DNA from: Candidatus Saccharimonadota bacterium
Lineage (GTDB): Archaea; Micrarchaeota; Micrarchaeia; Micrarchaeales; Micrarchaeaceae
Length of the DNA stretch: 32,000 nt
Direction of reading: 5' to 3'
Assembly: GCA_963698035.1 (NCBI GenBank)
Contig: OY969114.1
Coordinates: forward strand, 480,001 to 512,000
The notes under the pieces were generated by a model, which searched no databases, was not told where the DNA came from, and saw nothing but the letters and a program-made list of their open reading frames with translations. Shown here piece by piece: positions 3,223 to 32,000 of this stretch (position 1 is its first letter; each line of letters begins with the position of its first letter). A program made the position numbers and the translations under genes.

Positions 3223-3364
3223 CTTACCCCCGAACACTAAAACACCAGCAAATATAATATATCTGCATAGCGGTAAGAGTAGTATCGCTACTACGCCCTT
3301 TTTATTATCTCCAATAAAAAGCTTTTAGTGGCATACTACCAGATCAATGAGCAAGGTGTGAATA

Positions 3365-5168: not shown

Positions 5169-5492
5169 TCATCTTACCTTGCTTCCGACCCGCAATTCCT
5201 TGTCAGGCTGCAGCAGCGAGATCCCGGTCTCGTCCTCTGCAGTGAGTATCATTCCTTCCGAGACAAATCCAGCTATGCTCTTCGGCTCGAGGTTTGCCAC
5301 CACAATCACCCTCCTGTTCAGCAGCTCATCCTTCGTGTAGATGTTCTTTATCCCTGCTGCTATGTTCTTTATGCCAAGCTCGCCAAGGTCCACCCTGAGC
5401 CCGTAGATGGGCTTCCTCGCCGCTACATCGTTTACTTCTATTATCTTGCCCACTCTGATGTCAAGCTGCATGAACTCGTTTATAGTTGCCAT
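5169..5492 (-). CDS. Stand-alone tRNA-binding OB-fold protein (Trbp111/CsaA/MetRS C-terminal domain family)
   Basis: 107 aa. 'FMQLDIRVGKIIEV...VVANLEPKSIAGFVSEGMILTAED' matches the conserved pattern of the MetRS C-terminal/EMAP-II-like tRNA-binding domain. Confidence 0.8.
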   Translation of the reverse strand: MATINEFMQLDIRVGKIIEVNDVAARKPIYGLRVDLGELGIKNIAAGIKNIYTKDELLNRRVIVVANLEPKSIAGFVSEGMILTAEDETGISLLQPDKELRVGSKVR

Positions 5493-9770: not shown

Positions 9771-9795
9771 CCCTCGTTTACATTACGGTGGTTTA

Positions 9796-10805
9796 ATGTT
9801 GGCAGACCAAGGCGAAGAGGACTTCATAGCGAAGCTGGCGGTTGTCGGTGTTGGCGGTCAGGGAACTAACCTGGTGAACAGGTTGTACAACTCCGGGATA
9901 CGGAGCGCCGTAACGATATCCATTAATACCGATTCCAAGCACCTCAACATGGTCAAAGCCGATAAGAAGCTGCTGCTCGGCAAGAGCATAACCCACGGAT
10001 TGGGGGCAGGTGGCTTCCCAGAGGTCGCGATGAAGTGCGCCGAGGCTGACAGCAACGAGATCACAAAGCTCCTTGAGGGCTACGACATGATCTTCGTTAC
10101 AGCTGGCATGGGAGGCGGAACAGGAGGCGGAGCCGGACCGTCGATCGCAAGGATCGCAAAGGAGACCGGCGCGCTCGTTGTCGCCTTTGTCACATATCCA
10201 TTTGCGCTTGAGAGGAGCAGGAGGGTAAAGGCCGACTGGTCGATTGAACAGATGAGCAAGTACGCAGACACTACGATCGTGATAGAGAACGACAGGCTTC
10301 TCAGCTACGCACCAAACCTGCCGATGGACAAGGCGTTCGAGCTGATAGACAACGTCGCGTGCAACGCAGTGAAGGGCATAGCGGACACGATAATGCTGCC
10401 AAGCCTGATTAACTTGGACTTCGCTGATATAAGGGCGGTGATGGGTAATGCGGGCACCGCAGTGATAAACCTCGGGGTGGGATCGGGGGCCGACAAGGTA
10501 GAAGCTGCAGTAAGGTCGACGCTGAACCATCCAATGATGAACGTATCGCTTGAAGGATCCAAGAGCGCCATGGTCCATGTGACAGGGGGACCTCGCTCAC
10601 CATCCAGGAAGCCACCCAGATAGGGGAAGGGGTCACCGAAGGGCTTGACTCAAAGGCCAATGTAATATTCGGCGCAAGGCTCGTTCCCGAGCTGAAGGAT
10701 CAGATAAGGGTCATGTCGATCGTGACAGGGGTAACTCCGAAGTTAGGGATGGGAATAAAGCGCGAAGGAGTAGCCCAAATGGACCTGAACATAGGAATTC
10801 TCTAA
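9796..10805 (+). CDS. ftsZ: Cell division GTPase FtsZ (paralog 2), reading frame interrupted at a G5 run
   Basis: From the ATG at 9796: 'GVGGQGTNLVNRL', 'GMGGGTGGGAGP', 'NLDFADIRAVM'. The frame stops at 10623, but FtsZ homology ('TSLTIQEATQIGEGVTEGLDSKANVIFGARLVPELKDQIRVMSIVTGV') continues in the next frame from 10590 to the stop at 10803-10805. The switch is at GGGGG 10585-10589. Confidence 0.9.
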
Positions 10806-10888
10806 TAATTGTAAAAATTCTCAGCCCTCCCAACGCAGAGTTTATAAATGCGAGAGCAGAAACTAAACTGCTATTTTGCGGTGAACGG

Positions 10889-19776: not shown

Positions 19777-21999
19777 ATGCCCGACCTTCCTACGACAAGA
19801 TTCCTTATCGGACTCTCCACGATAGCCACTGGCGGCGTCACCAGGGAAGAGCTGATAAAGTACTTTACCGACCTCGTCAAGGACTCCTTTGGGATAGAGC
19901 GCGCAAAGGTCGTCGACCTCGACAGCGAGCATAGCGGAGGTACCATAGGCGGCCAGCTGATAAGCACCAGGAAGCAGTACGTCGACAATAGCCTCAGTGA
20001 CTATTCCTCCTTTCCGGAGCTTATCGGCTACAGCAACGAGGGATTCAAGAGCTATGCGGCGGTGCCGATAATGGCGGACGGCAAGGTTGTCTCGATGCTC
20101 GAGCTCCTCTCGCCCGCCGAGAGCAAGTTCACGCAGGAGATGATCAGCGGAGTATCTATAGGCGCGATGCTACTGGGATTTGCCCTCGCTTACAAATCCG
20201 AATACGGAAAGAGCACCAGGCTCGCAGGGTACTTCGATGCAGCATTCAACAGCGACAGCCCGCAGATGCTTGTCTCGTCAAACGGGGTGGTTGCAAAGGC
20301 AAACAAGGCCGCCACCAAGCTTTTCGGCTTCATGCAGCAGAGAGCCGAAGTCAAGCAGCTCCTCGGCATGGATTATGATAGACTGCTCTCGATATCGAAG
20401 ACGGGCGTGGCCGCTGCACTCCCCGTAAAGGAGAACGGCACCGACAAGACCTATTCCCTAATGGTGAGCAGGGCGAGCGAAGGGCTCCTCTACCTCTCGA
20501 TGCAGGATGTCTCAGATGTCTCCTCACTGAGGAACGCGCTCGCCTCTGTGATGAACAGCGACGACGTTTTCATAGCGTTCACAGACGAGCACCTCAACAC
20601 CTTGGGCGTCACCGAAAACTTCCAGCGCATCCTCGGATACGACAAGGACATGATGTCTGGCAAGAGCATAAGCGACCTTGTTGTAGAAAAGCAGAGGGCG
20701 GACTTCAGGGAGCTGGTAAAGAAAGAGCAGAAGGGTTCATTGAAGAGCACGGACCTCGCCTCGATGAGCGGCTATCCGACAAGGATGCACTTCTCTGTCT
20801 CGAAAGCGCTGAATGGCTATGCGATAATGTTCGCCAAAGCAGATGCAGAGAAGTACCTGCAGGCCCTGAGGGAGAGCCTCGACGACTTCACCGCGAACGC
20901 GGCCGAGATAGTGATAAGGGTTGACAGCATGGGCTACATAGTCTCGTGCAATTCCTCAGCTGAGGCTATGCTCGATTACACCAGGCAGGAGCTTGCAGGC
21001 AAGGAAATAAAATTATTGTACAAGGACCCATCGACCGTAGACCACGATATGGCATACGCGAGGAACCTGGGCAAGCCCGACAATTCCTACATAGACCTAA
21101 TAAAGAGGGACGGCACGATGGTGCCTGGCACCCAGTCAATACGGCTGCTTACCGACTCGGAAGGCAACTCCGAGTACCTGATAGTGGTGAAGGAACTCGC
21201 CAGCAAGCGCAGGATGGACGACCAGGAGTTCGAGCTCGGCAAGAGCGAGAGAGAGATAAAGAAGCTAAGATCTACAGGAGACCTGAAGTCGCAGTTCATA
21301 TACAATATATCGCACGAGCTCAAGACACCGCTGACCAGCATAAAAGGCTTCGCCAAGCTCCTCTCGACCGGCGAATTCGGGAAGCTGAACGAGGAGCAGC
21401 TCCAGTACATTCAGACTATATGCGACGAATCCGACAGGCTCATGCTGATAATACAGCAGGTGCTGGATGCCTCGAAGCTGGATGCACAGAAGGTGAAGCT
21501 CGACTTTAAGGAAGTGGACCTGACACAGCTTGGGAACAACCCAAGCATAGCCTCACTCCGCGAGGCTGCCGTGGAGAAGGGGCTCGTCTTTTCATGGAAG
21601 GTCGACTACGACGTTCCAAAGGTGCTCGCAGACCCCAACAGGCTGATCCAGATATTCGTCAACTTGGTCGGCAACTCGATAAAGTTCACCGAGAAGGGGA
21701 GCATCCAGGTCCACATATTCAAGAGGCCCCGAAAGAAGATACAGTGCGACATAATTGATACCGGAATTGGCATAAGCGAGGATGATAAGCAGAAGCTCTT
21801 CAAGAAGTTCTACCAGGTGCAGAAGAAAGGCATAGTAAAGCAGGACGGCTCCGGCACGGGCCTAGGACTCTCAATAACAAAGGAATTGGTAAAGCTCCAT
21901 GGTGGGGACATATCCTTCGAGTCGCAACTCGGGAAGGGCAGCAGGTTCTGGTTCACGATAAGGGTAGACTCAAAGACGAAGAAGGGATCACACGACTAG
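19777..21999 (+). CDS. Cytoplasmic sensor histidine kinase (GAF + PAS repeats + HisKA + HATPase_c)
   Basis: No TM segments. H-box 'ISHELKTPLTSIKGFAKLL', N-box 'IFVNLVGNSIKFT', G1 'DTGIGIS', G2 'GTGLGLSITKELVKLHGG'. Confidence 0.9.
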   Translation: MPDLPTTRFLIGLSTIATGGVTREELIKYFTDLVKDSFGIERAKVVDLDSEHSGGTIGGQLISTRKQYVDNSLSDYSSFPELIGYSNEGFKSYAAVPIMADGKVVSMLELLSPAESKFTQEMISGVSIGAMLLGFALAYKSEYGKSTRLAGYFDAAFNSDSPQMLVSSNGVVAKANKAATKLFGFMQQRAEVKQLLGMDYDRLLSISKTGVAAALPVKENGTDKTYSLMVSRASEGLLYLSMQDVSDVSSLRNALASVMNSDDVFIAFTDEHLNTLGVTENFQRILGYDKDMMSGKSISDLVVEKQRADFRELVKKEQKGSLKSTDLASMSGYPTRMHFSVSKALNGYAIMFAKADAEKYLQALRESLDDFTANAAEIVIRVDSMGYIVSCNSSAEAMLDYTRQELAGKEIKLLYKDPSTVDHDMAYARNLGKPDNSYIDLIKRDGTMVPGTQSIRLLTDSEGNSEYLIVVKELASKRRMDDQEFELGKSEREIKKLRSTGDLKSQFIYNISHELKTPLTSIKGFAKLLSTGEFGKLNEEQLQYIQTICDESDRLMLIIQQVLDASKLDAQKVKLDFKEVDLTQLGNNPSIASLREAAVEKGLVFSWKVDYDVPKVLADPNRLIQIFVNLVGNSIKFTEKGSIQVHIFKRPRKKIQCDIIDTGIGISEDDKQKLFKKFYQVQKKGIVKQDGSGTGLGLSITKELVKLHGGDISFESQLGKGSRFWFTIRVDSKTKKGSHD

Positions 22000-22929
22000 T
22001 ATCCCGCATGCGTTCCCTACGATGGCAGCGTCACTGAGCCCTGTCATGAGGCTGTCATAGCTCTGTCCCTGCCAAGCGCCGCTGAATATGGTGTTGACTG
22101 GCAGGCCGCTTGTAAGATTCATGGTTATCGTGAGGGCAGGCCCGGTGCTTCTTGATGTCTGCGACACTGTTGAGTACACCACCGCCCAATCGCCATTGCC
22201 CACGTTCGTTATGTTGCGTGCTAGCAAATATGGCGTAACGGCCGTGATATTCTGATAGGTGAATGGTCCGTAGGGCGATTTCGTGTAGTGAAGTATATAG
22301 CTTGAGTTGTAGAGGTCGCCTGTGCAACTGGCGGTATTGGCGTAGTCTGTGGTGTAGTTCGCCATGAGTGGATAGTATAGGTTATTCTTTAGTAATCCAA
22401 TGATGCGCTGCTCGGCGCTCTGCGTCGAGTTTATCGTTGTGCTTGTAGATATCGTTGTGCTCTGCACGGATATGGTAACCGAGGTTGTAGAATACGCCGA
22501 TGCCGACACAACCACTATCCTTCCCGAGTCGGGCTGCTCATCGAGGTATGTCTGTAGTGGAGTGAGCGTGACCGAGACGCTATTGCTCGTTACCGCATCG
22601 AGGTACACCTCCATGTTCGCATAGGTTGTGCCTGCGTTTACCTTTGTGAAATTGTCAAGAAGCAGCGTAACGTTAAGCGTCTGGCTAACGAAAATAGGTG
22701 ATTTCCCGATAAGTATGTAAGCCGTGTCGGAGCTGGGATTAGTCTTGCTCAGAAGCAGCACGTACTGGCCGCCCTGCAGCTTTACAACCGTCGGTGTGCT
22801 CGTGAGGGTCAGCTTTGTGGGCCCGGATATGCCCACCGCACCGCTGAGTATAGCCAGCGACGCTACTACCGCAACCACGATTATTATTACCGCAATGACG
22901 GCTACGCCGGTGTACTTCTTACGGGCCAT
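21988..22929 (-). CDS. Membrane-anchored extracellular protein, sequon- and Thr/Ser-rich
   Basis: N-terminal TM 'GVAVIAVIIIVVAVVASLAILSG', a T/S-rich stretch 'SVQSTTISTSTTINSTQS', and multiple N-x-S/T. Its 3' end overlaps the kinase 3' end by 12 nt (convergent). Confidence 0.6.
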   Translation of the reverse strand: MARKKYTGVAVIAVIIIVVAVVASLAILSGAVGISGPTKLTLTSTPTVVKLQGGQYVLLLSKTNPSSDTAYILIGKSPIFVSQTLNVTLLLDNFTKVNAGTTYANMEVYLDAVTSNSVSVTLTPLQTYLDEQPDSGRIVVVSASAYSTTSVTISVQSTTISTSTTINSTQSAEQRIIGLLKNNLYYPLMANYTTDYANTASCTGDLYNSSYILHYTKSPYGPFTYQNITAVTPYLLARNITNVGNGDWAVVYSTVSQTSRSTGPALTITMNLTSGLPVNTIFSGAWQGQSYDSLMTGLSDAAIVGNACGILVV

Positions 22930-23058
22930 CGCATCGACCTATATCCTCGTTGAAGGTTTATTAAAGTTTGCACTTTGAAAAAAGGGTGCCTCTCGTCTTC
23001 CAAAGAAAAATAGAAAGCATAATATTCCTTCTGGTTGACTTATCATTTAGGTGACCAG

Positions 23059-24264
23059 ATGGCAGGGAATGTCCCCCTTAACGAAGAGGTACTTTCTATA
23101 GTGAATGAGAGGCAGCAGCTGAGCTACAATGAACTTACAGAGATGATGTTCAGTCGTGGCGTGTCGGAACCGGACCTCAAGCAGTCCCTTTCAGACCTTG
23201 AATCGGGCAAGCTGATAGCATCAAGGAAGAACGGCGGTGTGCTTACCTACTACATCCTCAAACAGGACGAGATTCTCAGGAGGATCCTGATAGTCGAGGA
23301 TGACAAGAACATAAACAAGCTGATGGCACTGTCGATCGGGAAGGGATTCGAAATAGGGCAGATATACGATGGAGGGGAGGCCCTGCAAGCGGTGAAAATA
23401 GCAAGGCCCGACCTAATAATACTGGATCTCATGCTCCCGCACAAGGACGGCCTTGAGATCTGCCAGACGATAAAATCGGACCCAGCTACGAGCGGCACGA
23501 TAGTGATACTCGTAAGTGCGATGGATCCAACGAGCAACCGCTTCAAGGGGCTCAAGTATGGCGCAGATTACTACATAAAGAAGCCGTTCGACCCGAGCGA
23601 GCTAAGGACCCTTGTAACGATATTCCTCAGGAAGAAGGGCAAGAGGTTCGATCCACTCATAGACCTGCCTGACGAGGAGAGAATATCGAAGGAGGTTGAG
23701 AGATCGATAAAGGAGAGCGAGGTCATAGGAACACTAAAGGTGGATGAACTTGGCGCCTACGCAAGGAGGTTCGGCGAGCATGCGGCAATGATAATACTCA
23801 GGCTGATGTCACAGCTCCTCCAGGACTCAATAAAGATGAAGGGCGGCGGCGTCTTCGTCGGATTCCTGAACAGCGACGAGTTCGTGGTTGCCGGGACCAA
23901 GGATGAGGTTGGAGCGGTAGTGAGGGAGATAACCGATGAGTTCGCGGCCGTGCTGCCTTTCATACTGCAGGATGCGGGCTACAAGCTTCTAGAGCTCAAC
24001 ATAGATAGCCTCTTCGAGTCAAAGGAGGTGCCCAAGCTCTCCATTGTCTACTCAGAATCGGACAAGGCGGAGATAAAGGAGAGGAGGAGCGAGATACTGA
24101 AGAGCAAGGGTGTCGCAGGGGACGTAGGCTCCTACACCTACGAGGAACTGCAGAGGCTCTTCGGGAGGGATGACCTCGACATAAAGATAACAAGGGACTC
24201 AAACGGGGTAAGGCTGCACATAGGAAAGAACCCCGAAGGAAAGGACACAAAGAGAGAACAATGA
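23059..24264 (+). CDS. Response regulator: wHTH-like N-terminus + REC + degenerate GGDEF-like domain
   Basis: REC: 'RILIVEDDKN...DLIILDLMLPHKDG...YYIKKPFD'. C-terminal domain: 'DPLIDLPDEE' (compare GGDEF-domain 'DPLTGLPNRR'), 'LKVDELGAYARRFGEHAA', and 'GFLNSDEFVVAG' in place of GGDEF. The ATG at 23059 is preferred over the TTG at 23035. Confidence 0.8.
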   Translation: MAGNVPLNEEVLSIVNERQQLSYNELTEMMFSRGVSEPDLKQSLSDLESGKLIASRKNGGVLTYYILKQDEILRRILIVEDDKNINKLMALSIGKGFEIGQIYDGGEALQAVKIARPDLIILDLMLPHKDGLEICQTIKSDPATSGTIVILVSAMDPTSNRFKGLKYGADYYIKKPFDPSELRTLVTIFLRKKGKRFDPLIDLPDEERISKEVERSIKESEVIGTLKVDELGAYARRFGEHAAMIILRLMSQLLQDSIKMKGGGVFVGFLNSDEFVVAGTKDEVGAVVREITDEFAAVLPFILQDAGYKLLELNIDSLFESKEVPKLSIVYSESDKAEIKERRSEILKSKGVAGDVGSYTYEELQRLFGRDDLDIKITRDSNGVRLHIGKNPEGKDTKREQ

Positions 24265-24268
24265 TGCT

Positions 24269-24817
24269 ATGGCGGCATTTGGTCGACCCAGAGCTCAGAC
24301 TGCAATCGACTTCATAACATCGTATGGAGTAGCGGTACTTGTTTTATCGGTTACGATCTACATAATCTTACAGCTCGGCGTCTTCAACCCGCAGATAGCG
24401 CCCAGCTACTGCAACACGGCGCCGTCATTCTCGTGCGCCGCCTACGTGATGTACCCGAACGGCACATTCACATTCCTGCTGGGGCAGACAATAGGAGGTT
24501 CCATAATCATAAGCGGCATAGGCTGCTCCAGTGAGATAAATGGGACGGGGGTTGGCCCGGAGTTCGGCAACGTCGGGCTTGTCGGCACATCCATGTACTA
24601 CCCGACAAATGGGTTCACAAAAGGAACGGTACTGCTGAGCAACTTGCCGCAGCAGTTCAGCGTCAACTGTTACAATAGCGGCAGTGGACTGCCTGCCACG
24701 GCGTCGCTCGGAAGCAGCTTCGCGGGCTTCCTCTGGTTGAATTACACCTATTCGGGGTTGCCGAGCACTTACCAGACAGTACAGCAGGTCCTCACGTTCA
24801 GCACCTCCTACACGTAG
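24269..24817 (+). CDS. Archaeal type IV pilin-like protein (class III signal peptide)
   Basis: N-terminus 'MAAFGRPRAQTAIDFITSYGVAVLVLSVTIYII' matches the class III prepilin signal ([KR][GA]Q[ST]AI[DE][FY]L... then a hydrophobic helix). Sequon-rich ectodomain. Starts 4 nt after the response regulator. Confidence 0.7.
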   Translation: MAAFGRPRAQTAIDFITSYGVAVLVLSVTIYIILQLGVFNPQIAPSYCNTAPSFSCAAYVMYPNGTFTFLLGQTIGGSIIISGIGCSSEINGTGVGPEFGNVGLVGTSMYYPTNGFTKGTVLLSNLPQQFSVNCYNSGSGLPATASLGSSFAGFLWLNYTYSGLPSTYQTVQQVLTFSTSYT

Positions 24818-24883
24818 CTCGGAAGAAATCATATTAAATAGATGATGTTGTATATTTCTGAAAGTGGTTCAGTGAAGTTCAAT

Positions 24884-25711
24884 ATGGTTGTGGCCTCCAT
24901 GTTCGCTGCGACAATGCTCCTGCTCATATCCGGGCAGCTGAGCAATGCGGCCTATGTTACGGTCATACAGCCCTTCAATTACACGGTCACGAGCAGCAGC
25001 CCAGTCTACCTGGGTAAGGACGGGCCGGGGCAGACTTTCTATGTGACCATATCAGCTACAACTACGAACAACAGCGGTGCGGTCAACCTGCTAGGATGGA
25101 ACAAGCTCGTGGTGACCAACCTTCCGCAAGGATGGATCGCCCAGAACTCTTCGTTGTACACCCCCACACTATCCGTAAAGATAACACCCTCGGCCACGGC
25201 GCAGAACGGTACATATGCCTTCAACCTTACCGCGGTAAACGTTGGCAACTACTCGAAGCTCGGCGCGCTGAGGTTTACCGCACTCATCAACATCACTCCA
25301 GACGTATTCAAACTGAGTGTCAGTCCAGCATCAATATCTGAAAGCACAGGCACACCAGCAGATGTCTACGTTACGATAAACAACACGGGGGTCTCTGACA
25401 GCCTCTTCCTGATAACGATAACTGGCATACCCGCCCAGAACATCACAGATACGGTAATAGCGCTGCACGGCACATCGCAGCGTTACGCCTATCCCATAAC
25501 CCTCAGCCAGCCGGGCAGGTACACGCTGAACATAAACGTCGAATCGATATCGAGCTCCCTGGTGCGAAGTCAGGCGAATGTGACGGTGGTGGCTAGGGCG
25601 ACGCTGCTCAGTGACTACACAGCAATAGGCAGTGGCATCGACGCCTTCCCTGTAGTCTATGAGCCCATCTATGCAGTGATGTACCTGATAAGCAGGCTCT
25701 TCCCCGCCTAA
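24884..25711 (+). CDS. Secreted sequon-rich protein with beta-sandwich-like repeats and a hydrophobic C-terminus
   Basis: Signal peptide 'MVVASMFAATMLLLISGQLSNA' (the ORF track opens earlier at 24842). The pattern 'FKLSVSPASISESTGTPADVYVTINNTGVSD' resembles CARDB/NEW3-type domains. Hydrophobic tail 'IYAVMYLISRLFPA'. Confidence 0.55.
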   Translation: MVVASMFAATMLLLISGQLSNAAYVTVIQPFNYTVTSSSPVYLGKDGPGQTFYVTISATTTNNSGAVNLLGWNKLVVTNLPQGWIAQNSSLYTPTLSVKITPSATAQNGTYAFNLTAVNVGNYSKLGALRFTALINITPDVFKLSVSPASISESTGTPADVYVTINNTGVSDSLFLITITGIPAQNITDTVIALHGTSQRYAYPITLSQPGRYTLNINVESISSSLVRSQANVTVVARATLLSDYTAIGSGIDAFPVVYEPIYAVMYLISRLFPA

Positions 25712-25758
25712 TTCAAATAAACAAAAGGCTCAAAAAGGATGGTGAGCAAACAAAATAA

Positions 25759-25830
25759 GCCCGAATAGCTCAGTGGTAGAGCGACTGGCTGTTAACCAGT
25801 AGGTCGCAGGTTCAATCCCTGCTTCGGGCG
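25759..25830 (+). tRNA. tRNA-Asn (anticodon GUU)
   Basis: Hand-folded cloverleaf. Acceptor GCCCGAA/TTCGGGC (7 bp), D stem GCTC/GAGC, anticodon stem ACTGG/CCAGT with loop CTGTTAA, T stem GCAGG/CCTGC with loop TTCAATC, discriminator G. No encoded CCA. Confidence 0.92.
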
Positions 25831-25891
25831 TTATGGTAAGGTTCAACCCCCTTTCATAAGTATTATAAACACATACATCTAATATCCCTCT

Positions 25892-27193
25892 ATGGCCACT
25901 TTAGAGGATTGGAAGGTCAGCGCTGACAAGCTCAACAAAAGGGTCATGGAAGACCCTCGCATAAGCGCAGTCAACAAGAAGCGCATAGCAGAACACGTTG
26001 TAAACCTGAACGGAGAGCGCAAGAACCCACGAAGCATCATAAGACATCTTTACGGGTTGCTCAAACTTATGGAATGCGTATCTTACAAAAGGGACATCAA
26101 TACCTTTACGGACAGGGACATAAAGAAAGCCATCCACGTAGTAGAGGAACAAACTTATCCTAAAAAGATTATGGAGAACGGGAAGCTCACAACAAAACAA
26201 GTCCCTTACAGCGAAGAGGTAAAGCTCCACTTTTACGCTGTGTGGGTCAAGTACTACAAGCTGGCGCTCGGTAAAGGCTACATGAAACCCGACAACGTGG
26301 CCTTCATAAAGATTACAGGTAAGGCTAACCAGAAACGAGACCCCGACTCGATACTCGAGCGTGAGGACATAATGAAGATGCTGGGTAAGTGCTACAATAT
26401 TAGGGACTCGGCCTTCCTATATTGTCTCTGGGAATCTGCGACCAGAATAAATGAGATACTATCATGCACAAAGAAGGACTTGCAGATTGTAAGCGCAAAG
26501 AAAGGGGAGTACGAAGCGATCCTGCACATCCACGTATCTAAAACAAAACAGCGTAAAGTCCCGTTGTTCGAATCCGTCCCTTACCTGCTTTCATATTTAG
26601 AGTCAAAGTATCTTCAGGATGCTCCCGACGAAGCTCCGCTCTGGCAACGAGTTCATGCTGGGCACGGCGCTGATAAAGGACTACAAGAACCCGAAGCCAG
26701 AAAACTATTAGCAGAGATAGGCATGCGAGCTGGGATAACGTCGAAGCGCCTTAATCCCCACAGCTTTAGATTCTCCCGAATAACTTATGAAAGCGAAATA
26801 GGTGTCCCGCAAGCATGGATAAAGGAGAAGACAGGCTTAACGCAGTCGAGCAATAGGATAGATGTCTATGCGAGGTTAAAGGGTACTGCGGTACAAGAAG
26901 GTTATCGCAAGCTGATACACGGGGAGACGACGCCGAAGGAAATAGTAATGCCTGTCGCTCCGTTGCAGAGATGTCCGAAGTGCGACAACGATATAAGGCT
27001 CAACGCTCTATTCTGCGACAAGTGTGGAGCTGTGCTGTCGCAGGACAAGAAGGATGTTGTCGATGAAGTAGACAAGAACCTTATCGATAAGGCGCTGGAC
27101 GAATACCTGAAAGACCCTGCGAACTTTAAGAGAGCGCTCGAGCGAGTATCCCATCAGGCTTTAGTAGAGGACAGAGAGCGAAAGAGGAAATGA
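25892..27193 (+). CDS. int: Tyrosine recombinase/integrase with a C-terminal zinc ribbon
   Basis: Catalytic-domain motifs 'ESATRINEIL' (Arg I), 'VSKTKQRKVPL' (Lys), 'NPHSFRFSRIT' (HxxR), 'NRIDVYARL' (Tyr). C-terminal 'CPKCDNDIRLNALFCDKCG'. Confidence 0.85.
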   Translation: MATLEDWKVSADKLNKRVMEDPRISAVNKKRIAEHVVNLNGERKNPRSIIRHLYGLLKLMECVSYKRDINTFTDRDIKKAIHVVEEQTYPKKIMENGKLTTKQVPYSEEVKLHFYAVWVKYYKLALGKGYMKPDNVAFIKITGKANQKRDPDSILEREDIMKMLGKCYNIRDSAFLYCLWESATRINEILSCTKKDLQIVSAKKGEYEAILHIHVSKTKQRKVPLFESVPYLLSYLESKYLQDAPDEAPLWQRVHAGHGADKGLQEPEARKLLAEIGMRAGITSKRLNPHSFRFSRITYESEIGVPQAWIKEKTGLTQSSNRIDVYARLKGTAVQEGYRKLIHGETTPKEIVMPVAPLQRCPKCDNDIRLNALFCDKCGAVLSQDKKDVVDEVDKNLIDKALDEYLKDPANFKRALERVSHQALVEDRERKRK

Positions 27194-27197
27194 TACC

Positions 27198-27344
27198 ATG
27201 AAAAAGAAAACTGGGTACGTATGCGAGTGTGGGTTTAGATTCTCTGGCGCTGGGGAGATAAGAAACCACGATGTCTTTATCGCAAAGGATGGGAAAGGGG
27301 GAAGCATCTGTCCTAAATGTAAAAGACGATATGTTTGGTTGTGA
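27198..27344 (+). CDS. Small zinc-ribbon protein (48 aa)
   Basis: Hand-translated: MKKKTGYVCECGFRFSGAGEIRNHDVFIAKDGKGGSICPKCKRRYVWL. CxC...CxxC. Starts 4 nt after the int stop. Below the ORF-track length cutoff. Confidence 0.45.
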   Translation: MKKKTGYVCECGFRFSGAGEIRNHDVFIAKDGKGGSICPKCKRRYVWL

Positions 27345-27347
27345 AGG

Positions 27348-28349
27348 TTATACCAATCCCCATGCACGTACAAGGCCTATTGTCGATAGGTAAATAGATT
27401 CGTGTGTGGTTGTAAAGTTTAAGAGATAAAAATCAAGAACCCTAACCGAATACTTTTGTACCATGATACGAGACGCTATCGCTTCAGGGGACTCAACAAG
27501 AGGAATAGAACGAGGAAGCATACGAGTATTGAGTGGTTGCGCTTCAGGGATTACTTTAGGGTACTTGGATACTTCAACATTATACTCGTCGATAATCTCT
27601 TTCCTTCGTGCAAGCCAGTACTTATAAAAGAACCTGTCAAGCTCCCACGAAGACGTTGCAGTAGTACGCAGGTTCTTTGAACTTGTCCCTATATATTTCA
27701 GCTTATCGGATGCAAGGTACATAAGGTCGGACTTTATTTTGCTGTTTGATGGAATCTTGGTATTGAACTGCTTATTTAACTCTGCGACCAGCTTTACCCT
27801 TATTTCCTCTGGGGTCTTTTCCTCTGTAATGCGAACCCGACCTTTTTCTTTTGTCGGTATCTCTTTAGGGTTAAACATACGAAACCCTATCGGCTCTCCT
27901 TTGAGGATAGAGACGATTTGTGTTTGGTACTGAAGAGCGTCGAAGGACATCAACGCTATAATCGAGTGTAAGATACCTGCTTTGATCTCTTTCTTTGTAA
28001 TATACTCCCCGACATAAGAGGTTATCAGAGACATTAATTCTTGATGGTACTTCTTTTCTGAGTGCTTTGTTATTTCTCTTAGCTTTTCTGCAAAATGCAC
28101 GTCAAAAATCTCTTTCTGTATCTGCTCGAGGTACTTTGCGATGTAAGAATATTGTAGCTGGCGCTCTATGGTCTTCGTCGTCATAGGTTGCTTGTTCAAC
28201 AAGAGAATGACCATTACCTCGTATGGTGTTGTTAACGATATAGGAATTGTATCGAGGTCGTTCGACATACCCAGCATCGATTCTTTCTGTAAATTACCGA
28301 CGACAGAGCGGTAAGTGTCCTCGACACGTTCGGCCACAAATATACCCAT
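27348..28349 (-). CDS. Orphan 333-aa protein, possible N-terminal wHTH
   Basis: The only long ORF in an AT-rich stretch. 'TPYEVMVILLLNKQPMTTKTIERQL' resembles a winged-helix recognition segment; the rest is unrecognised. A TATA-like TTTAAATA (minus strand, ~28368-28378) lies upstream of the start. Confidence 0.6.
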   Translation of the reverse strand: MGIFVAERVEDTYRSVVGNLQKESMLGMSNDLDTIPISLTTPYEVMVILLLNKQPMTTKTIERQLQYSYIAKYLEQIQKEIFDVHFAEKLREITKHSEKKYHQELMSLITSYVGEYITKKEIKAGILHSIIALMSFDALQYQTQIVSILKGEPIGFRMFNPKEIPTKEKGRVRITEEKTPEEIRVKLVAELNKQFNTKIPSNSKIKSDLMYLASDKLKYIGTSSKNLRTTATSSWELDRFFYKYWLARRKEIIDEYNVEVSKYPKVIPEAQPLNTRMLPRSIPLVESPEAIASRIMVQKYSVRVLDFYLLNFTTTHESIYLSTIGLVRAWGLV

Positions 28350-28544
28350 GTAGCAATCAACAATAGAATATTTAAACGTTCCTAATAGGCTTTTAATAGG
28401 TAGTCCTGTATAAAGCTAATATACATTATATGGCTAACTGCTATACGGCTTTTACATCCTTACCCTCGAAGTAGGGTATAGCTTTTTATATCTTTATATC
28501 TTTATATATAAGATTGAGTATAGGTTTTTGTATAAACCTAATAG
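28350..28544. promoter_or_regulatory. Divergent control region of the element (promoters/operators, possible origin)
   Basis: AT-rich 195 nt between divergent genes. Contains CCTAATAGG (28381) / TTAATAGG (28393) / CCTAATAGA (28537), GGCTTTTA at 28388 and 28447, the palindrome TACCCT-N6-AGGGTA (28461-28478), and tandem TATATCTT units (28487-28510). Confidence 0.6.
28487..28510. repeat. 8-nt tandem repeat TATATCTT TATATCTT TATATATA (three phased TATA-like boxes)
   Basis: Read directly from the sequence. Ends 35 nt upstream of the RHH gene ATG. Confidence 0.8.
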
Positions 28545-28775
28545 ATGATGGAAATGGAAAACGAAGACCCGAACGCAACCGACGGCCTGAAGACAACCCA
28601 CGTAAAGAAAATCAACCTTACGTCGATATATCTGAACCCATCCCCCGAGCTGAAGTCGTGGATAGCGGAGCAGAAGGCTCGACATGGTGCAACGTTCTCG
28701 GCGCTGGTAAGGGTTGCGCTGGTTGAGAAGATGCACCGGGAGACGACGCCGATAGTGGCGCAGGCGACAGCATGA
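28545..28775 (+). CDS. Ribbon-helix-helix (CopG/Arc/MetJ-type) DNA-binding protein
   Basis: After an acidic N-terminus: beta-strand 'KKINLTSIYLNP', helix 'ELKSWIAEQKARHG', helix 'FSALVRVALVEKM'. Confidence 0.6.
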   Translation: MMEMENEDPNATDGLKTTHVKKINLTSIYLNPSPELKSWIAEQKARHGATFSALVRVALVEKMHRETTPIVAQATA

Positions 28776-28963
28776 CGTACGAAGATTATATTATAAGAGC
28801 GGTTGTAGACGCACTCCCTCGCCTGAGGGACAATAGCAGGCTTACGCCAGCGCACAGGCGTTTCGTGGCGATGGTCGAGGGGTATGTTAATGCAAGGAAG
28901 CAGGACGGGATGATAGCCACGCAGGCTGGAAGGCCTGCTGTCGCTAAAGAGGTTATTGCATGA
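28772..28963 (+). CDS. Orphan small protein (63 aa)
   Basis: ATGA overlap with the upstream RHH gene. No recognisable motif. Confidence 0.45.
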   Translation: MTYEDYIIRAVVDALPRLRDNSRLTPAHRRFVAMVEGYVNARKQDGMIATQAGRPAVAKEVIA

Positions 28964-29124
28964 GATACAGACGCAGACACCAACCACCATCACAGGAGAT
29001 AATCGTGCGGAAGACGTTGCAGACCACAACACAGCGTCCTCAGGTACTCCAGCCTGGAAGCGCCGGTGCGGTGTTTATCGGTAAGGTAAGGCAAAAGATC
29101 CAGGAAGAACAAAAGGCGAGATGA
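28960..29124 (+). CDS. Orphan small basic protein (54 aa)
   Basis: Hand-translated: MRYRRRHQPPSQEIIVRKTLQTTTQRPQVLQPGSAGAVFIGKVRQKIQEEQKAR. ATGA overlap upstream, and its stop is 1 nt before the next ATG. Below the ORF-track cutoff. Confidence 0.35.
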   Translation: MRYRRRHQPPSQEIIVRKTLQTTTQRPQVLQPGSAGAVFIGKVRQKIQEEQKAR

Positions 29125-29125
29125 A

Positions 29126-29578
29126 ATGGAAGCGTGCTATCGATGCGGTTATGTTAATTCTCCTTTGCTGAGTTCAGGCCAGCCGTTTAATTGTATCCGA
29201 TGCGGAGCGCCACTCGGAAGACAGGGATGGCTATCAAAGAACGAACGACCACAGCCGAGACCTCAGAGGGAGGATACCAAAGACGCAGAAAGAGATGACA
29301 AAATGGATGGGATAACGCTTATGCAAGTTCAGGAACAGGGTAAGACGCTGTGGCCGACTGACCTTCAGGTAAAGACTCTGCTATCGCTCGGGGTCTCAAG
29401 AGAAGACATCGAAGGCCTATCTCGTACTGAAGCTGGGGAGCTTATTCGCAAGAAGCTCGAGGAGAAGGGAGCGAGGTATACAGAAATGCTATGGTGTCCC
29501 TTTTGCTCTGAACTGCATCCTGTTCAGCATAGTAAATCGGTACGGGATTTCAAGGAATGGAAAGCGAAACAAAAATAA
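29126..29578 (+). CDS. Orphan zinc-ribbon protein (150 aa)
   Basis: N-terminal 'CYRCGYV...CIRCGAP' zinc ribbon, a charged linker, and a C-terminal 'CPFCSELHPVQH' Cys/His cluster. Confidence 0.5.
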   Translation: MEACYRCGYVNSPLLSSGQPFNCIRCGAPLGRQGWLSKNERPQPRPQREDTKDAERDDKMDGITLMQVQEQGKTLWPTDLQVKTLLSLGVSREDIEGLSRTEAGELIRKKLEEKGARYTEMLWCPFCSELHPVQHSKSVRDFKEWKAKQK

Positions 29579-29590
29579 TCGGCGATAATT

Positions 29591-29773
29591 ATGGATTTGA
29601 ACTTGAAAGGGAAACAGGTTTTAGTAATAATGAAGGACGGCTTCATTAAACATGGTCTACTTCTCGATGCACAGCCGAACTTCGTTGTCCTGCAATTTCA
29701 GGATGGTAAAGAGGAGATAATCAGCTTCAGCACGATTTCTGTAATAAAGGAAAATGGGGGGCGGACACGATGA
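29591..29773 (+). CDS. Sm/Hfq-like fold small protein (60 aa)
   Basis: 'LKGKQVLVIMKDGFIKHGLLLDAQPNFVVLQFQDGKEEIISFSTISVIKE' follows the Sm1/Sm2 strand pattern (compare Hfq '[25 protein letters not shown]...VYKHAISTVVP'). Confidence 0.45.
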   Translation: MDLNLKGKQVLVIMKDGFIKHGLLLDAQPNFVVLQFQDGKEEIISFSTISVIKENGGRTR

Positions 29774-30843
29774 CCATAGACGACGTTATGAAGCAAATAA
29801 GCGAGAGGGGGTACGGGTTCGTAAACCTTTCATACGACCCCAAGATAAATTCCGAATTTCTGGGACTCAAGTATTACCGCCTGCTCCCTGAAAAATTTAA
29901 TGATTATGAGCATCAGCTCCAGCGCCATCGTTTTGATAAGCTGGTAAGCAATAATGGATACGCTCTCGACTCAACCCTCTACTGCATTATGAAGGTCGAC
30001 AACGATTCGCTGAATCGCCTCTGTGCTACTCCTGAGTTCGAGGACTTTACATACACGCTGGGTTTCTTTGACATCCCAGAAGCAGAGTTAAATGACATCG
30101 AGGGACGGAAACAAAATCTTCAGGAAGTCAGAGGTATGTTTAGCAAGCATCACACAATCGAGGAGATAAAATCCGAGATTATCAAATGTTATACCGACCC
30201 TAATAACAAGGGAAGCCACAATCAAGCAATATGGACAAGCCTGCCTCTCGATAGCGTAGAAAAGCGCTCGATAGGGGACACTACAACCTACAAGATAAAG
30301 ATTGCAGGACGGGAGATGGCGCTTACCAGCATGAAGCTCCTCGATTCAAAGAGTTTCAGGGCAAAGTTTCAAGACTTGTTCGGTGTCCAGCTCCCGTTTT
30401 GCAGAACTGAATTATGGTCGATGTTTACCCTTTACATAAATTCGTTAATATGTACCGAAGTAGTCAGAGACACAACAAGCGAGCGGGATATGATCAGAGA
30501 GAATGTAAAGAACCACATCGAAGGGAGTATCGCTGTCCCGACCTATGACGAAGCTATGAATTCATGGAACAGCATAAGGATAGGCGAAGGCGACAACCTC
30601 TACATCTTTCCTAAGCATCTTTTAGAGGGCATTAAAAATCAGGTGGGACGGGAGATAAACGTGAACAACGTTGTCGATGCTATTGCAGATTGGTACATCA
30701 CGTCAACTCCACGCAAGTTAAAGGATAATAAAAAGCAGGTGAGGTTCTGGCGATTAAGGAAGAGCGCCTTTGACCTTTCAGGCATCGCACAGGAAGAGGA
30801 TGACCGACAAGGCGCTTTAATCGAGAGTGGCGAGCATGAATAA
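29770..30843 (+). CDS. Orphan 357-aa protein; tentative primase-polymerase (AEP)-like motifs
   Basis: ATGA overlap upstream and an 8-nt overlap with the helicase gene. Weak AEP-like motifs 'LYCIMKVDND' (hhhDxD), 'NKGSHNQAIW' (sxH), 'LDSVEKRSIGDTTTYKIK'. Not a secure assignment. Confidence 0.5.
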   Translation: MTIDDVMKQISERGYGFVNLSYDPKINSEFLGLKYYRLLPEKFNDYEHQLQRHRFDKLVSNNGYALDSTLYCIMKVDNDSLNRLCATPEFEDFTYTLGFFDIPEAELNDIEGRKQNLQEVRGMFSKHHTIEEIKSEIIKCYTDPNNKGSHNQAIWTSLPLDSVEKRSIGDTTTYKIKIAGREMALTSMKLLDSKSFRAKFQDLFGVQLPFCRTELWSMFTLYINSLICTEVVRDTTSERDMIRENVKNHIEGSIAVPTYDEAMNSWNSIRIGEGDNLYIFPKHLLEGIKNQVGREINVNNVVDAIADWYITSTPRKLKDNKKQVRFWRLRKSAFDLSGIAQEEDDRQGALIESGEHE

Positions 30844-32000
30844 GACAATAATCTATGGTATTGCTGGGTCGGGTAAGACTGCAAAGATAATAGAGCTTAT
30901 CCGTACACGACATCCTGACAGGCTAGGCGAGTGCTGTGTAATCAGCTTCTCAAGGTCGGCTGTACGCAACCTTAGGGAGCGAATAGGGGTAAACAACGCC
31001 AAGGAAGAGTACGACCGCAAGGATTTAGAGGGGTTTAGGACGATTCATAGTATTTGCTCAAGGTTAATGGAGTTGAGCAAAGAAATATTTTTGACAGAGG
31101 GAGACATCGAGAAGTTTATGGAGCAAAAACACATAGATTTCAAACAAGAGGACGAGCTGTACGACGAGCAGAGCGATGGCCAGCGCCTTCTTTCATTAAT
31201 CGACTACATAAGACACACGCAAGTAAAAAGCATAGATAACTTGAGCGCCAGAGACCTGCATCTTCAGATAGGGTACTATCTGGCGCAGTATGGCCACTTC
31301 GACAAAATCATAGCGGACGTTCAGATAATTCGAGACTTGATACAAGCATACGAGGACTATAAGAAAGAAATCGGTAAGCTCGACTATACTGACATCCTGT
31401 TATTGTACCTAAGCAATCCCGTACAAACAGGGTATAAAGTTCTTGTAGTAGACGAGTTTCAAGACATGAGTCCGCTTATCTACAAGATCATAAAAACATT
31501 CGAGCAGGGAGCGGACTACGTTTACTACGCTGGCGACCCGAATCAAGCAATCTATACATGGATGGGAGCTGACCCCCACTTCCTAATAGACGAGATAAAG
31601 GATGCTGACGAAGAGATACTGCTCAATAAGTCGCATAGAGTAGCGGATAAGGTCTATGTTGTCGCAAAGGATACCATAAACAGCAACTCGAGGGACAAGA
31701 TAGATTTTGAAATAGAGTGTGTAAACAAAGGGGATGTAAAAAGGATTTCTGAAGACGATGTGGTCAGCATAGCGAAGACGACAGGCGCTTCAGGGACGAC
31801 CTACATACTGGCTCGTACCAACTGGATGAAGAGACGCATACTAAAGGCGCTTATGCAAGAGGGGGTCGAATTTTCAGAGATAAGCGGAAATAAGGTATGG
31901 ACAATTAAGTTAATCAACATAACCAACGCTCTCTTATCGATAAAGAACGGGACAGCGCTCAAAATCGACTGGCTGAAGGCCTTTATCGATGTAGTACCAT
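30836..32000 (+). CDS. UvrD/Rep/PcrA-like superfamily 1 helicase (partial; runs off the window)
   Basis: Hand-translated open frame from the ATG at 30836 with no stop to 32000. It is absent from the ORF track. Walker A 'YGIAGSGKT', motif II 'VLVVDEFQD', motif III 'AGDPNQAIYTW', motif IV-like 'NKSHR'. Confidence 0.85.
   Translation, partial: MNKTIIYGIAGSGKTAKIIELIRTRHPDRLGECCVISFSRSAVRNLRERIGVNNAKEEYDRKDLEGFRTIHSICSRLMELSKEIFLTEGDIEKFMEQKHIDFKQEDELYDEQSDGQRLLSLIDYIRHTQVKSIDNLSARDLHLQIGYYLAQYGHFDKIIADVQIIRDLIQAYEDYKKEIGKLDYTDILLLYLSNPVQTGYKVLVVDEFQDMSPLIYKIIKTFEQGADYVYYAGDPNQAIYTWMGADPHFLIDEIKDADEEILLNKSHRVADKVYVVAKDTINSNSRDKIDFEIECVNKGDVKRISEDDVVSIAKTTGASGTTYILARTNWMKRRILKALMQEGVEFSEISGNKVWTIKLINITNALLSIKNGTALKIDWLKAFIDVVP

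Follow-up and report, generated by a model that had tools for sequence, protein, structure and literature searches.

A complete 10.2-kb cryptic integrated element, probably of plasmid type, in the 3' end of the tRNA-Asn(GTT) gene of an uncultivated archaeon

What kind of mobile element has settled beside the tRNA-Asn gene of an uncultivated archaeon, where does it end, and how might it be maintained? The locus that raises this question lies in a 32,000-nt stretch of DNA (contig OY969114.1, positions 480,001 to 512,000, assembly GCA_963698035.1; hereafter "the window") of a member of the Micrarchaeaceae. An earlier note, made from the letters of the window, had described there an integrase-bearing island that starts at the 3' end of tRNA-Asn(GUU), runs to the edge of the window and is made almost entirely of orphan genes, its class being left open. 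We find that the island is an element of 10,201 bp (25833..36033) with 19 open reading frames (ORFs) and a coding density of 91%, and that it is probably a complete cryptic integrated element of the plasmid type. It is inserted at the tRNA 3' end between perfect 14-nt att repeats, with an intact integrase beside attL and a foreign composition, and the attL repeat restores tRNA-Asn. It has three parts: a conserved backbone, a replication-like module, and a second, Xer-like recombinase. The kind of element, integrated, plasmid-like and following the class II integration logic, is already known; what is new here is the orf357 and wh333 proteins and most of the small-ORF families, the integrase-wh333 backbone, and a candidate origin of replication.

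The ends of the element were read from the tRNA gene. ARAGORN and Rfam agree on a tRNA-Asn ending at 25830, just where the earlier note had placed it, the Rfam model RF00005 giving identical coordinates with 77.1 bits over model positions 1-71 of 71, and Rfam returned no RNA family besides this tRNA. When the tRNA region was compared with the downstream 10.2 kb of the composite sequence, the longest exact match was the 14-nt core CTGCTTCGGGCGTT, whose sole other copy lies 197 nt past the last ORF (Table 1). Insertion at the tRNA is thus borne out by a tRNA-derived direct repeat, with its second CTGCTTCGGGCGTT copy 10.2 kb away, and a match of at least 14 nt arose by chance in 9/2000 shuffles. 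A core between inverted repeats is the usual layout of a tyrosine-recombinase site. In the reconstructed attP, the core does lie between two such arms, GGGGGTACAACCTTCC and GTAAGGTTCAACCCCC, complementary at 13/16 positions, and this imperfect inverted repeat is, by its sequence, a suggestive candidate for the core-binding site of the integrase.

The edge of the window was passed by means of short-read Logan contigs of sample ERR10755947. One of them (L001, 3343 nt) is 100% identical to window 25803..29145; another (L004, 5389 nt) starts at window 30661, is 100% identical over 1340 nt, and then goes on for 4049 nt beyond 32000 (L004 coordinates plus 30660 give the window-equivalent coordinates used here). 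These contigs confirm the island sequence independently, which matters because the host part of the window has at least one homopolymer frameshift, in ftsZ2. Logan contigs are drawn from a de Bruijn graph with k=31, in which each 31-mer is unique within an accession (PMC12424806). The first 31-mer of L001, starting at 25803, is the first to include base 25833, the first element-specific base, and the last 31-mer of L004, ending at 5389, is the last to include base 5359, the last element-specific base. Both contig ends lie exactly 30 nt (k-1) from the core edges, and they are the graph branch points expected if an empty attB (the tRNA plus CGCTCCCC...) co-exists with attL and attR, the predicted empty site running from the tRNA directly into CGCTCCCCAGC... 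These breakpoints lend good but indirect support to the boundaries and to a polymorphic occupancy, and occupied and empty sites seem to occur side by side in the sampled population. The Logan assembly of ERR10755947 also breaks at 29145, inside zn150, and at 30661, inside orf357, possibly because of strain variation or because the sample also contains another version of the zn150-sm60-orf357 segment; an intact 357-aa orf357 product is not on record in the gene-position index that was searched.

A different reading of the right end would take the 14-nt match for a coincidence, with the boundary wrong, the island larger and the true repeat farther out, given that such a match turns up in ~0.5% of shuffles, that only 16 nt are known beyond it, and that the contigs break elsewhere too. 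We regard this as highly improbable, since the match covers exactly the tRNA 3' end, is placed 197 nt past the last ORF, has beside it the inverted-repeat arm that pairs with the one on the attL side, and has both contig ends exactly k-1 from the core edges. We therefore keep to the 10,201-bp element in what follows.

The foreign composition of this element was suspected in the earlier note from two hand-counted lines, and both counts (24/60 and 37/60) are exact. Computed properly, the deviation holds: the G+C content of the island is 0.450 vs. 0.510 for the host, where 2-kb windows have a standard deviation of 0.021, and the tetranucleotide distance to the host profile is 20-24 for 5-kb chunks of the island vs. 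9-12 for host-only chunks, with a value of 13 for the chunk that straddles the junction (22501-27500). Neither G+C alone nor spot counts are diagnostic here, because the host MetRS gene is equally G+C-poor. That gene (3365..5008; 3001..5000) has a G+C content of 0.43-0.45, as low as that of the island, and a host-like tetranucleotide profile.

Beside attL stands an intact tyrosine integrase gene, as had been read, which starts 62 nt past the tRNA end and 60 nt past the att core. Its 433-aa product, Int433, scores 35 bits against PF00589 (cut-off 27.1), carries a Zn_Ribbon_1 match at residues 358-382, and matches phrog_216 and phrog_1, both of them integrase families; R185, R293 and Y326 are invariant among its relatives, and H290 and the Lys region are present. 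There is good support for Int433 being the integrase of the element, because its homologues abut other tRNA genes. It resembles the archaeal tyrosine integrases of class II, the pNOB8 type that follows the lambda paradigm (Badel et al. 2021, PMC8371274), in that its gene adjoins att, stays intact after integration, and targets a tRNA 3' end, but it departs from them in its C-terminal Zn ribbon and helical tail, which are common to its metagenomic relatives, as well as in having HxxR where pNOB8 has YxxR, and a Leu for Trp/His. The tblastn matches of some haloarchaeal and methanogen virus integrases to Int433 also extend beyond the ribbon residues, and the annotated proteins nearest to it are integrases of archaeal tailed viruses. 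Given that Int433 is intact, with att outside its gene and beside it, partitioning of the SSV type (class I), in which int would be split by integration, does not apply, in agreement with the earlier note; nor is the second recombinase near attR, Int208, an int fragment, since it holds a complete catalytic domain. Int208 matches PF00589 at 1.8e-21 and the XerA model at 5e-32, none of the R, K, HxxR, H and Y positions is missing from it, and it has no pairwise similarity to the short recombinase-like ORF of a related element (L018).

All the ORFs that had been listed for the window part of the island (48, 333 on the minus strand, 76, 63, 54, 150, 60 and 357 aa, and the helicase) are present, and they are collected with the other features in Table 1. 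The ATGA overlaps reported between them hold at 28772, 28960 and 29770, where ATG lies over TGA; at 30836, ATGA was indeed read, but the stop is the TAA at 30841..30843, and the overlap is 8 nt.

Table 1. Features of the element and of its junctions, in window or window-equivalent coordinates
Feature	Position	Strand	Description
tRNA-Asn(GTT)	25759..25830	+	Integration target; gene stays complete at attL; ARAGORN and Rfam
attL core CTGCTTCGGGCGTT	25819..25832		Last 12 nt of tRNA-Asn plus 2 nt
attL junction			...GGTTCAATCCCTGCTTCGGGCGTT/ATGGTAAGGTTC
Right inverted-repeat arm GTAAGGTTCAACCCCC	25836..25851		Faces GGGGGTACAACCTTCC (L004 5336..5351) across the core in the reconstructed attP
Int433	25892..27193	+	433 aa; tyrosine integrase, class II (lambda/pNOB8 paradigm); C-terminal CxxC...CxxC Zn ribbon, helical tail
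zn48	27198..27344	+	48 aa; putative four-Cys zinc-ribbon mini-protein; candidate gene
wh333 (P0123)	27348..28349	-	333 aa; winged-helix domains
Divergent AT-rich control region	28350..28544		195 nt, between wh333 and the operon
rhh76	28545..28775	+	76 aa; first gene of the co-directional operon; RHH-like by pattern only
p63	28772..28963	+	63 aa; small conserved operon protein
p54	28960..29124	+	54 aa; very basic (12 K+R, 3 D+E)
zn150	29126..29578	+	150 aa; N-terminal zinc ribbon, C-terminal C2H2-like CPFCx3Hx3H; directly 5' of sm60
sm60	29591..29773	+	60 aa; Sm/Hfq-like
orf357	29770..30843	+	357 aa; near-orphan, translationally coupled to the helicase
SF1 UvrD/Rep-like helicase (P0001)	30836..32428 (window part to 32000)	+	530 aa
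Non-coding AT-rich iteron block	32429..32680		252 nt, directly 3' of the helicase gene; CTAC iterons in L004 1830..1990
p58, zn73, p128, tm77, p98, p152, p112			In this order downstream of the iteron block; with Int208 and p103, they continue the co-directional gene string
Int208	34752..35378		208 aa; complete Xer-like catalytic domain; follows p112, ends ~650 nt before attR
p103			Between Int208 and attR
attR core CTGCTTCGGGCGTT	36020..36033 (L004 5360..5373)		Sole other copy of the core
attR junction			...CCGTAATCCTCTGCTTCGGGCGTT/CGCTCCCCAGCAAATA
Predicted attB (empty-site) junction			...GGTTCAATCCCTGCTTCGGGCGTT/CGCTCCCCAGCAAATA
Predicted attP (circular-form) junction			...CCGTAATCCTCTGCTTCGGGCGTT/ATGGTAAGGTTC

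To what class does an element with these genes belong? Over all 19 ORFs, Pfam, NCBIfam, PHROGs and PADLOC gave no match to a capsid, portal, terminase, spike, conjugation or complete defence-system protein; the virion hallmarks (capsid, portal/terminase, spike/adsorption) were sought with Pfam and PHROGs without result, and so were VirB4/TraG-type ATPases and transfer-apparatus membrane proteins with Pfam and NCBIfam, the element having a single membrane protein. The absence of capsid, terminase and conjugation genes, noted before for the visible part, thus holds for the complete element, and the class that had been left open can now be narrowed: with nothing in the complete element that points to a virus, to conjugation or to a defence island, it is most likely a plasmid-like cryptic integrated element. 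In the operational sense of Krupovic et al. 2019 (PMC6563490), it is such an element, a category defined there for Thaumarchaeota, with which it shares an integrase, short flanking direct repeats, a size below 20 kb, mostly unknown genes, no virus or conjugation hallmarks, and variable replication modules. It must be kept in mind that this is an operational class and not a homologous family, that the host here has division genes of the euryarchaeal type, and that the backbone of a Zn-ribbon integrase and wh333 is not among the features described for cryptic integrated elements in the consulted passages of PMC6563490, which mention UvrD-like SF1 helicases for some integrative-conjugative elements of Thaumarchaeota.

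A provirus of a very small archaeal virus, for example, one with a spindle-shaped or membrane-vesicle virion made from tm77 and other small ORFs, is unlikely on these grounds, with some small weight left to it. Spindle-shaped archaeal viruses have small, hydrophobic major capsid proteins, and tm77, the sole protein of the element with transmembrane segments, is a 77-aa protein with two adjacent hydrophobic helices that is conserved in a related element (L018; 4e-16). The virus-type integrases nearest to Int433 count on the same side, as do seven downstream ORFs without known function and the many genes that pTN2-like plasmids have in common with the virus PAV1 (PMC3543421). Against this, PHROG, Pfam and BFVD gave no virion, packaging or adsorption match, no large or secreted protein is there to act as a receptor binder, tm77 is the one membrane protein, and no relatives of orf357 or wh333 were found in IMG/VR. 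To our knowledge, 10.2 kb is also smaller than the genomes of all known spindle-shaped viruses.

There is moderate support for a replicon of an episomal form that would consist of orf357, the SF1 helicase and the iteron block. The helicase has its motifs intact (GSGKT, DEFQD, GDPNQ, TIHSAKGLE and VAFTRSK) and matches PF00580 at 1.9e-26, its strongest profile being the phage/plasmid helicase family phrog_1967 at 2.8e-64. Among 5.8 billion proteins, its relatives are P0002 (49% identity) and P0003 (30%), all the rest being below 30%, and P0002 is encoded on a 3.2-kb JGI contig (L005), where it comes after and overlaps an orf357 homologue. This homologue (L005/L006), 35% identical, is the sole relative of orf357 and is once more placed directly 5' of and overlapping its helicase gene. 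The gene string is accordingly not widespread, as the island reading of the earlier note implied, orf357 and the helicase having just one relative more than 30% identical among billions of proteins: scans of metagenomes and IMG/VR with the orf357 alignment recovered only the L005 contig, the helicase scan of species-representative genome contigs, a set that includes neither the source genome nor close relatives, only an irrelevant Legionella locus, and the helicase-pair scan of IMG/VR only 26%-identical helicases, probably from phages. For orf357, Pfam, NCBIfam, PHROG and PADLOC gave no match, a profile search of the PDB gave only noise, and no homology was found to the ORFs that take its place in pMETVU01 (671 aa) and in L018 (339 aa).

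Directly behind the helicase gene, the iteron block has a G+C content of 34% vs. 45% for L004 overall, and within 144 nt it carries seven motifs of the TACTAC type, the first five direct and the last two inverted, with 11 occurrences of TACTAC in the whole of L004 vs. 2.3 expected; the 13-mer ACTACGCCTTACT occurs twice in it with a spacing of 21 nt. The L005 locus has a block of equivalent layout and position, with seven CTACACC motifs (eight in the whole locus vs. 0.27 expected), and the two blocks are 63% identical, vs. 44 +/- 3% for shuffles, the helicase coding DNA being 57% identical. We read the block as a candidate replication origin because of its conserved position, its low G+C content, and iterons that drift together with the neighbouring proteins. 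A lone iteron in reverse orientation, ACATCGCCTTACTAC, lies far from the block at L004 5192..5209 (35852..35869), ~150 nt before attR, and it may be a second binding site near attP.

The same two genes could also be seen as a defence island or satellite, in which orf357 and the UvrD-like helicase would be a Gabija-like two-gene anti-virus system and not a replication module. The helicase resembles GajB in being a UvrD-like SF1 protein of ~500 aa coupled to a partner gene; it matches many PADLOC GajB models (best 2.4e-24), it is translationally coupled to orf357, an unknown partner, and the related L021/L022 elements carry restriction-modification and GmrSD cargo. However, GajB reaches only 84 bits, at the generic UvrD level (94 bits for the UvrD domain) and far below the 219 bits of phrog_1967; orf357 shows neither a PADLOC match nor any signature of an ATPase, a TOPRIM domain or a nuclease, and no ORF of the element matches GajA, the OLD-family ATPase-TOPRIM protein, in PADLOC. 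Furthermore, both known copies of the helicase gene are followed by a conserved iteron block, as suits an origin and not a defence operon, and the element has no other replication gene. A defence system is therefore very unlikely, and we return to the replicon.

Among known replicons, the closest resemblance is to the pTN2/pEXT9a superfamily of Thermococcales and Methanocaldococcus (pTN2, pP12-1, pCIR10, pIRI48, pEXT9a, pAMT7, pIRI33 and pMETVU01), which is defined by an SFI helicase with a large Rep ORF immediately upstream, often with RHH genes and a ZF-Hfq-like gene in the Rep-helicase unit (Krupovic et al. 2013, PMC3543421). By tblastn over the 72,556 plasmids of PLSDB, the best plasmid matches of our helicase are pCIR10, pIRI33, pAMT7, pTN2, pP12-1, pMETVU01 and pEXT9a, all seven with 24-26% identity over 94-97% of the protein and E values of 1e-23 to 1e-27. 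The likeness includes the size (8.6-13.3 kb vs. 10.2 kb here), an ORF directly 5' of and overlapping the helicase gene, a Sm/Hfq-like protein with a Zn-finger partner in the operon, and small RHH-like or winged helix-turn-helix genes near the replication cassette. The sm60 protein has 36% identity over 50 aa with the Hfq-like domain of a pMETVU01 protein (pairwise E 7e-5) and a pairwise E of 6e-4 with pP12-1, its match to Pfam DUF2642 being sub-threshold (E 0.031, 14.6 bits, cut-off 22.7). There are differences as well: the upstream ORF has 357 aa here vs. more than 650 codons; sm60 lies two genes upstream of the helicase, separate from zn150, whereas the ZF-Hfq of the plasmids is fused and directly downstream, so that the comparison of zn150 with these fusions is an analogy only; the plasmids are episomal and lack tyrosine recombinases, of which the integrated element has two; and the host is no hyperthermophile of those orders and no further genes are shared. 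Because the defining large Rep is absent, the element is not a member of the pTN2/pEXT9a family. By this analogy, sm60 and zn150 might speculatively be accessory nucleic-acid binders, as in the pTN2-like plasmids. A chromosomal int - prim-pol - SFI helicase set in Thermococcus onnurineus NA1 (TON_1378-1380), read by its authors as an integrated mobile element (PMC3543421), is alike in having an integrase and a putative replicase directly before an SF1 helicase; compared by description only, it differs in having three genes and a prim-pol, vs. 19 ORFs, att sites and a non-prim-pol partner here.

The backbone, for its part, recurs in other elements. An Int433-type integrase shares its element with a wh333 relative in 4/4 informative contexts (L008, L009, L018-L020 and L021/L022), with integrase E values from 1e-12 to 1e-41. 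At a tRNA-Phe gene (L008), an integrase with the C-terminal Zn ribbon and tail (E 1e-25), a wh333 homologue and divergent small ORFs follow the layout seen here, and at a tRNA-Glu gene (L009-L013), the integrase is followed by 7 kb of cargo (ParE, a phosphatase, a KaiC-like ATPase and UbiA), a wh333 homologue and divergent small ORFs. Two contigs of this latter element, from different samples (L009, ENA MEGAHIT; L012, Logan), end at equal base 117, 116 nt 5' of the wh333 homologue P0131, which may be a recurrent assembly break in its divergent control region. In L018-L020, the integrase adjoins a wh333 homologue, and there are homologues of tm77 (4e-16) and p112; L018 (3298..9062) has a 339-aa ORF and a 496-aa AAA+/DnaA-like ATPase in place of orf357 and the SF1 helicase, together with a serine resolvase and a short integrase-like ORF, and this looks like an exchange of the replication module on a common backbone. 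The closest integrase (1.5e-41) adjoins a wh333 homologue in L021/L022, where the cargo (L021 1603..6931, L022 860..6188) consists of a type IIG restriction-modification enzyme of 1079 aa and a GmrSD-type nuclease of 676 aa, so the backbone can ferry defence genes. Since tm77, p112 and p63 are also common to elements of this family, Int433, wh333 and the divergent small-ORF operon are a conserved backbone on which the replication and cargo modules vary. The description of the island as almost entirely orphan consequently has to be given up: the integrase, wh333, p63, tm77 and p112 are proteins of a small family of integrative elements in archaea, and the helicase and sm60 are distantly linked to the pTN2/pEXT9a plasmids.

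Most likely, wh333 is a DNA-binding regulator or switch of the element, a role taken from its position, and less likely its initiator. An exhaustive HMMER search of 1.84 billion representatives found 24 relatives, single family members matching MarR_2 or TrmB or having N-terminal MazE/AbrB or HNH fusions. The AlphaFold2 (AF2) model built with the alignment of these relatives reached a predicted local distance difference test score (pLDDT) of 79.6 and a predicted template modelling score (pTM) of 0.76, and Foldseek searches of it against the PDB and BFVD gave nothing better than E 0.7, with only MarR-, PadR- and Orc-type winged-helix pieces. Moderate support exists for wh333 regulating the divergent operon. 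The control region between the two contains three tandem (T/C)TTTATAT units (28484..28507), the palindrome TACCCT-n6-AGGGTA (28461..28478), and TTTAAATATT ~25 nt upstream of the wh333 start; from their sequence, the palindrome and the (T/C)TTTATAT units are likely an operator and archaeal TATA boxes.

As for the small ORFs of the backbone and operon, rhh76 is also called as a gene on the Logan contig and has positional counterparts in L007, L008 and L010, but it has no significant family match, and its earlier naming as an RHH regulator lacks statistical support. The p63 protein has weak relatives at an equivalent position in L021/L022 (3e-4) and L007 (1e-3). The zn48 mini-protein has only a sub-threshold RING-like match and zn150 only a sub-threshold Zn-ribbon match in Pfam, and no relatives were found for zn48 or p54.

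Put together, these parts suggest how the element might live. Int433 would recombine attP, with its core between the imperfect inverted repeats, with the tRNA-Asn end, and as the int gene is intact after integration, excision would still be possible. The wh333 protein, transcribed divergently from the long operon across the TATA-like repeats, would act as the switch or regulator of the element. The episome would replicate from the AT-rich iteron block just 3' of the helicase gene, with orf357 as an initiator or helicase loader, the SF1 helicase unwinding the DNA, and the Sm-like/Zn-finger pair as accessory proteins, in a replication logic like that of the Rep-SFI helicase-Hfq cassette of the pTN2/pEXT9a plasmids. 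Finally, Int208 would resolve multimers of the episome.

Several observations weigh against the reading of the locus as a still mobile, plasmid-type element. The assembly graph has no branch where a circular attP junction would make one, and neither the empty site nor the circular junction was observed directly; because the Logan assembly has further breaks at 29145 and 30661, not every contig end is tied to an att site, and the polymorphism is something that we infer. The att core is short, with 14 nt, and the presumed host DNA readable past attR comes to the 16 nt already mentioned. Int433 has a Leu where its relatives have Trp and other recombinases His or Trp, so its activity is only predicted, and the roles given to wh333, Int208, sm60 and zn150, among them the speculative one of Int208 as a multimer resolvase, are drawn from position and weak similarity. 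In the replication-like module, orf357 has no similarity to the Reps of pMETVU01, pEXT9a and pTN2 by hhalign or phmmer, its single-sequence AF2 model is unusable (pLDDT 35) and it has no detectable domain. The helicase is about equally far from phage helicases, haloarchaeal chromosomal UvrD-like proteins and plasmid helicases, and because the phage and cellular UvrD-like proteins are about as distant, no specific plasmid affinity is shown. Episomal replication as a whole is our inference.

Some of these points (the Leu at the Trp/His position of Int433, the attP junction missing from the assembly graph, and the core of just 14 nt) would also suit a fixed and immobile remnant that entered at tRNA-Asn and whose integrase is now inactive. 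We consider such a remnant quite unlikely, as none of the 19 ORFs is broken and the coding density is 91%, the two att repeats match perfectly, the breaks in the contigs agree with empty sites being present alongside, and a second intact recombinase, Int208, has the full R-K-HxxR-H-Y signature. A complete cryptic integrated element of the plasmid type thus stays the reading that we prefer.

A further and bolder proposal can be offered only tentatively, and we hold it to be rather doubtful as a whole. In it, orf357 would found an unrecognised family of initiators or helicase loaders that acts, together with an SF1 helicase of the plasmid type, at a co-evolving origin with CTAC iterons, and, additionally, wh333, with its double winged helix, would be a new obligatory partner (a switch or directionality factor) of a family of Zn-ribbon tyrosine integrases that builds modular elements which target tRNA genes and whose replication and defence cargo can be exchanged.

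The host part of the window holds genes for MCM, fibrillarin, two FtsZ paralogues and SepF. The second FtsZ paralogue (ftsZ2, 9790..10830, plus strand) has a frameshift at a G5 run, near 10586..10590: reading frame 1 ends with a stop at 10623 ("...HVTGGPRSPSRKPPR*"), and the canonical C-terminus of FtsZ follows in frame 3. Either this is a pseudogene or the assembly has a homopolymer error, which would point to long reads as its source. Immediately 5' of the tRNA, 21988..25711 encodes a run of secreted or pilin-like host proteins (313, 182 and 289 aa) rich in N-x-S/T sequons that adjoins a response-regulator-like gene; the three proteins were scanned against NCBIfam without a match.

In summary, islands with an integrase that targets a tRNA gene are commonplace, and no general concept is changed by this one. 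Its source is a rare and almost unstudied archaeal family, and the mobile elements of uncultivated, non-extremophile archaea are poorly known, the small self-replicating ones being the usual raw material for genetic tools. The locus offers a complete element of ~10 kb with defined ends and a candidate origin that is conserved in a second element, together with a candidate new initiator-helicase pair and an integrase/winged-helix backbone that recurs at other tRNA genes with differing cargo. If the bolder proposal is true, the system of orf357, helicase and iterons would be a new type of archaeal replicon outside the hyperthermophiles. The locus can serve, in any case, as a starting point from which to define a new family of integrative plasmids in archaea.

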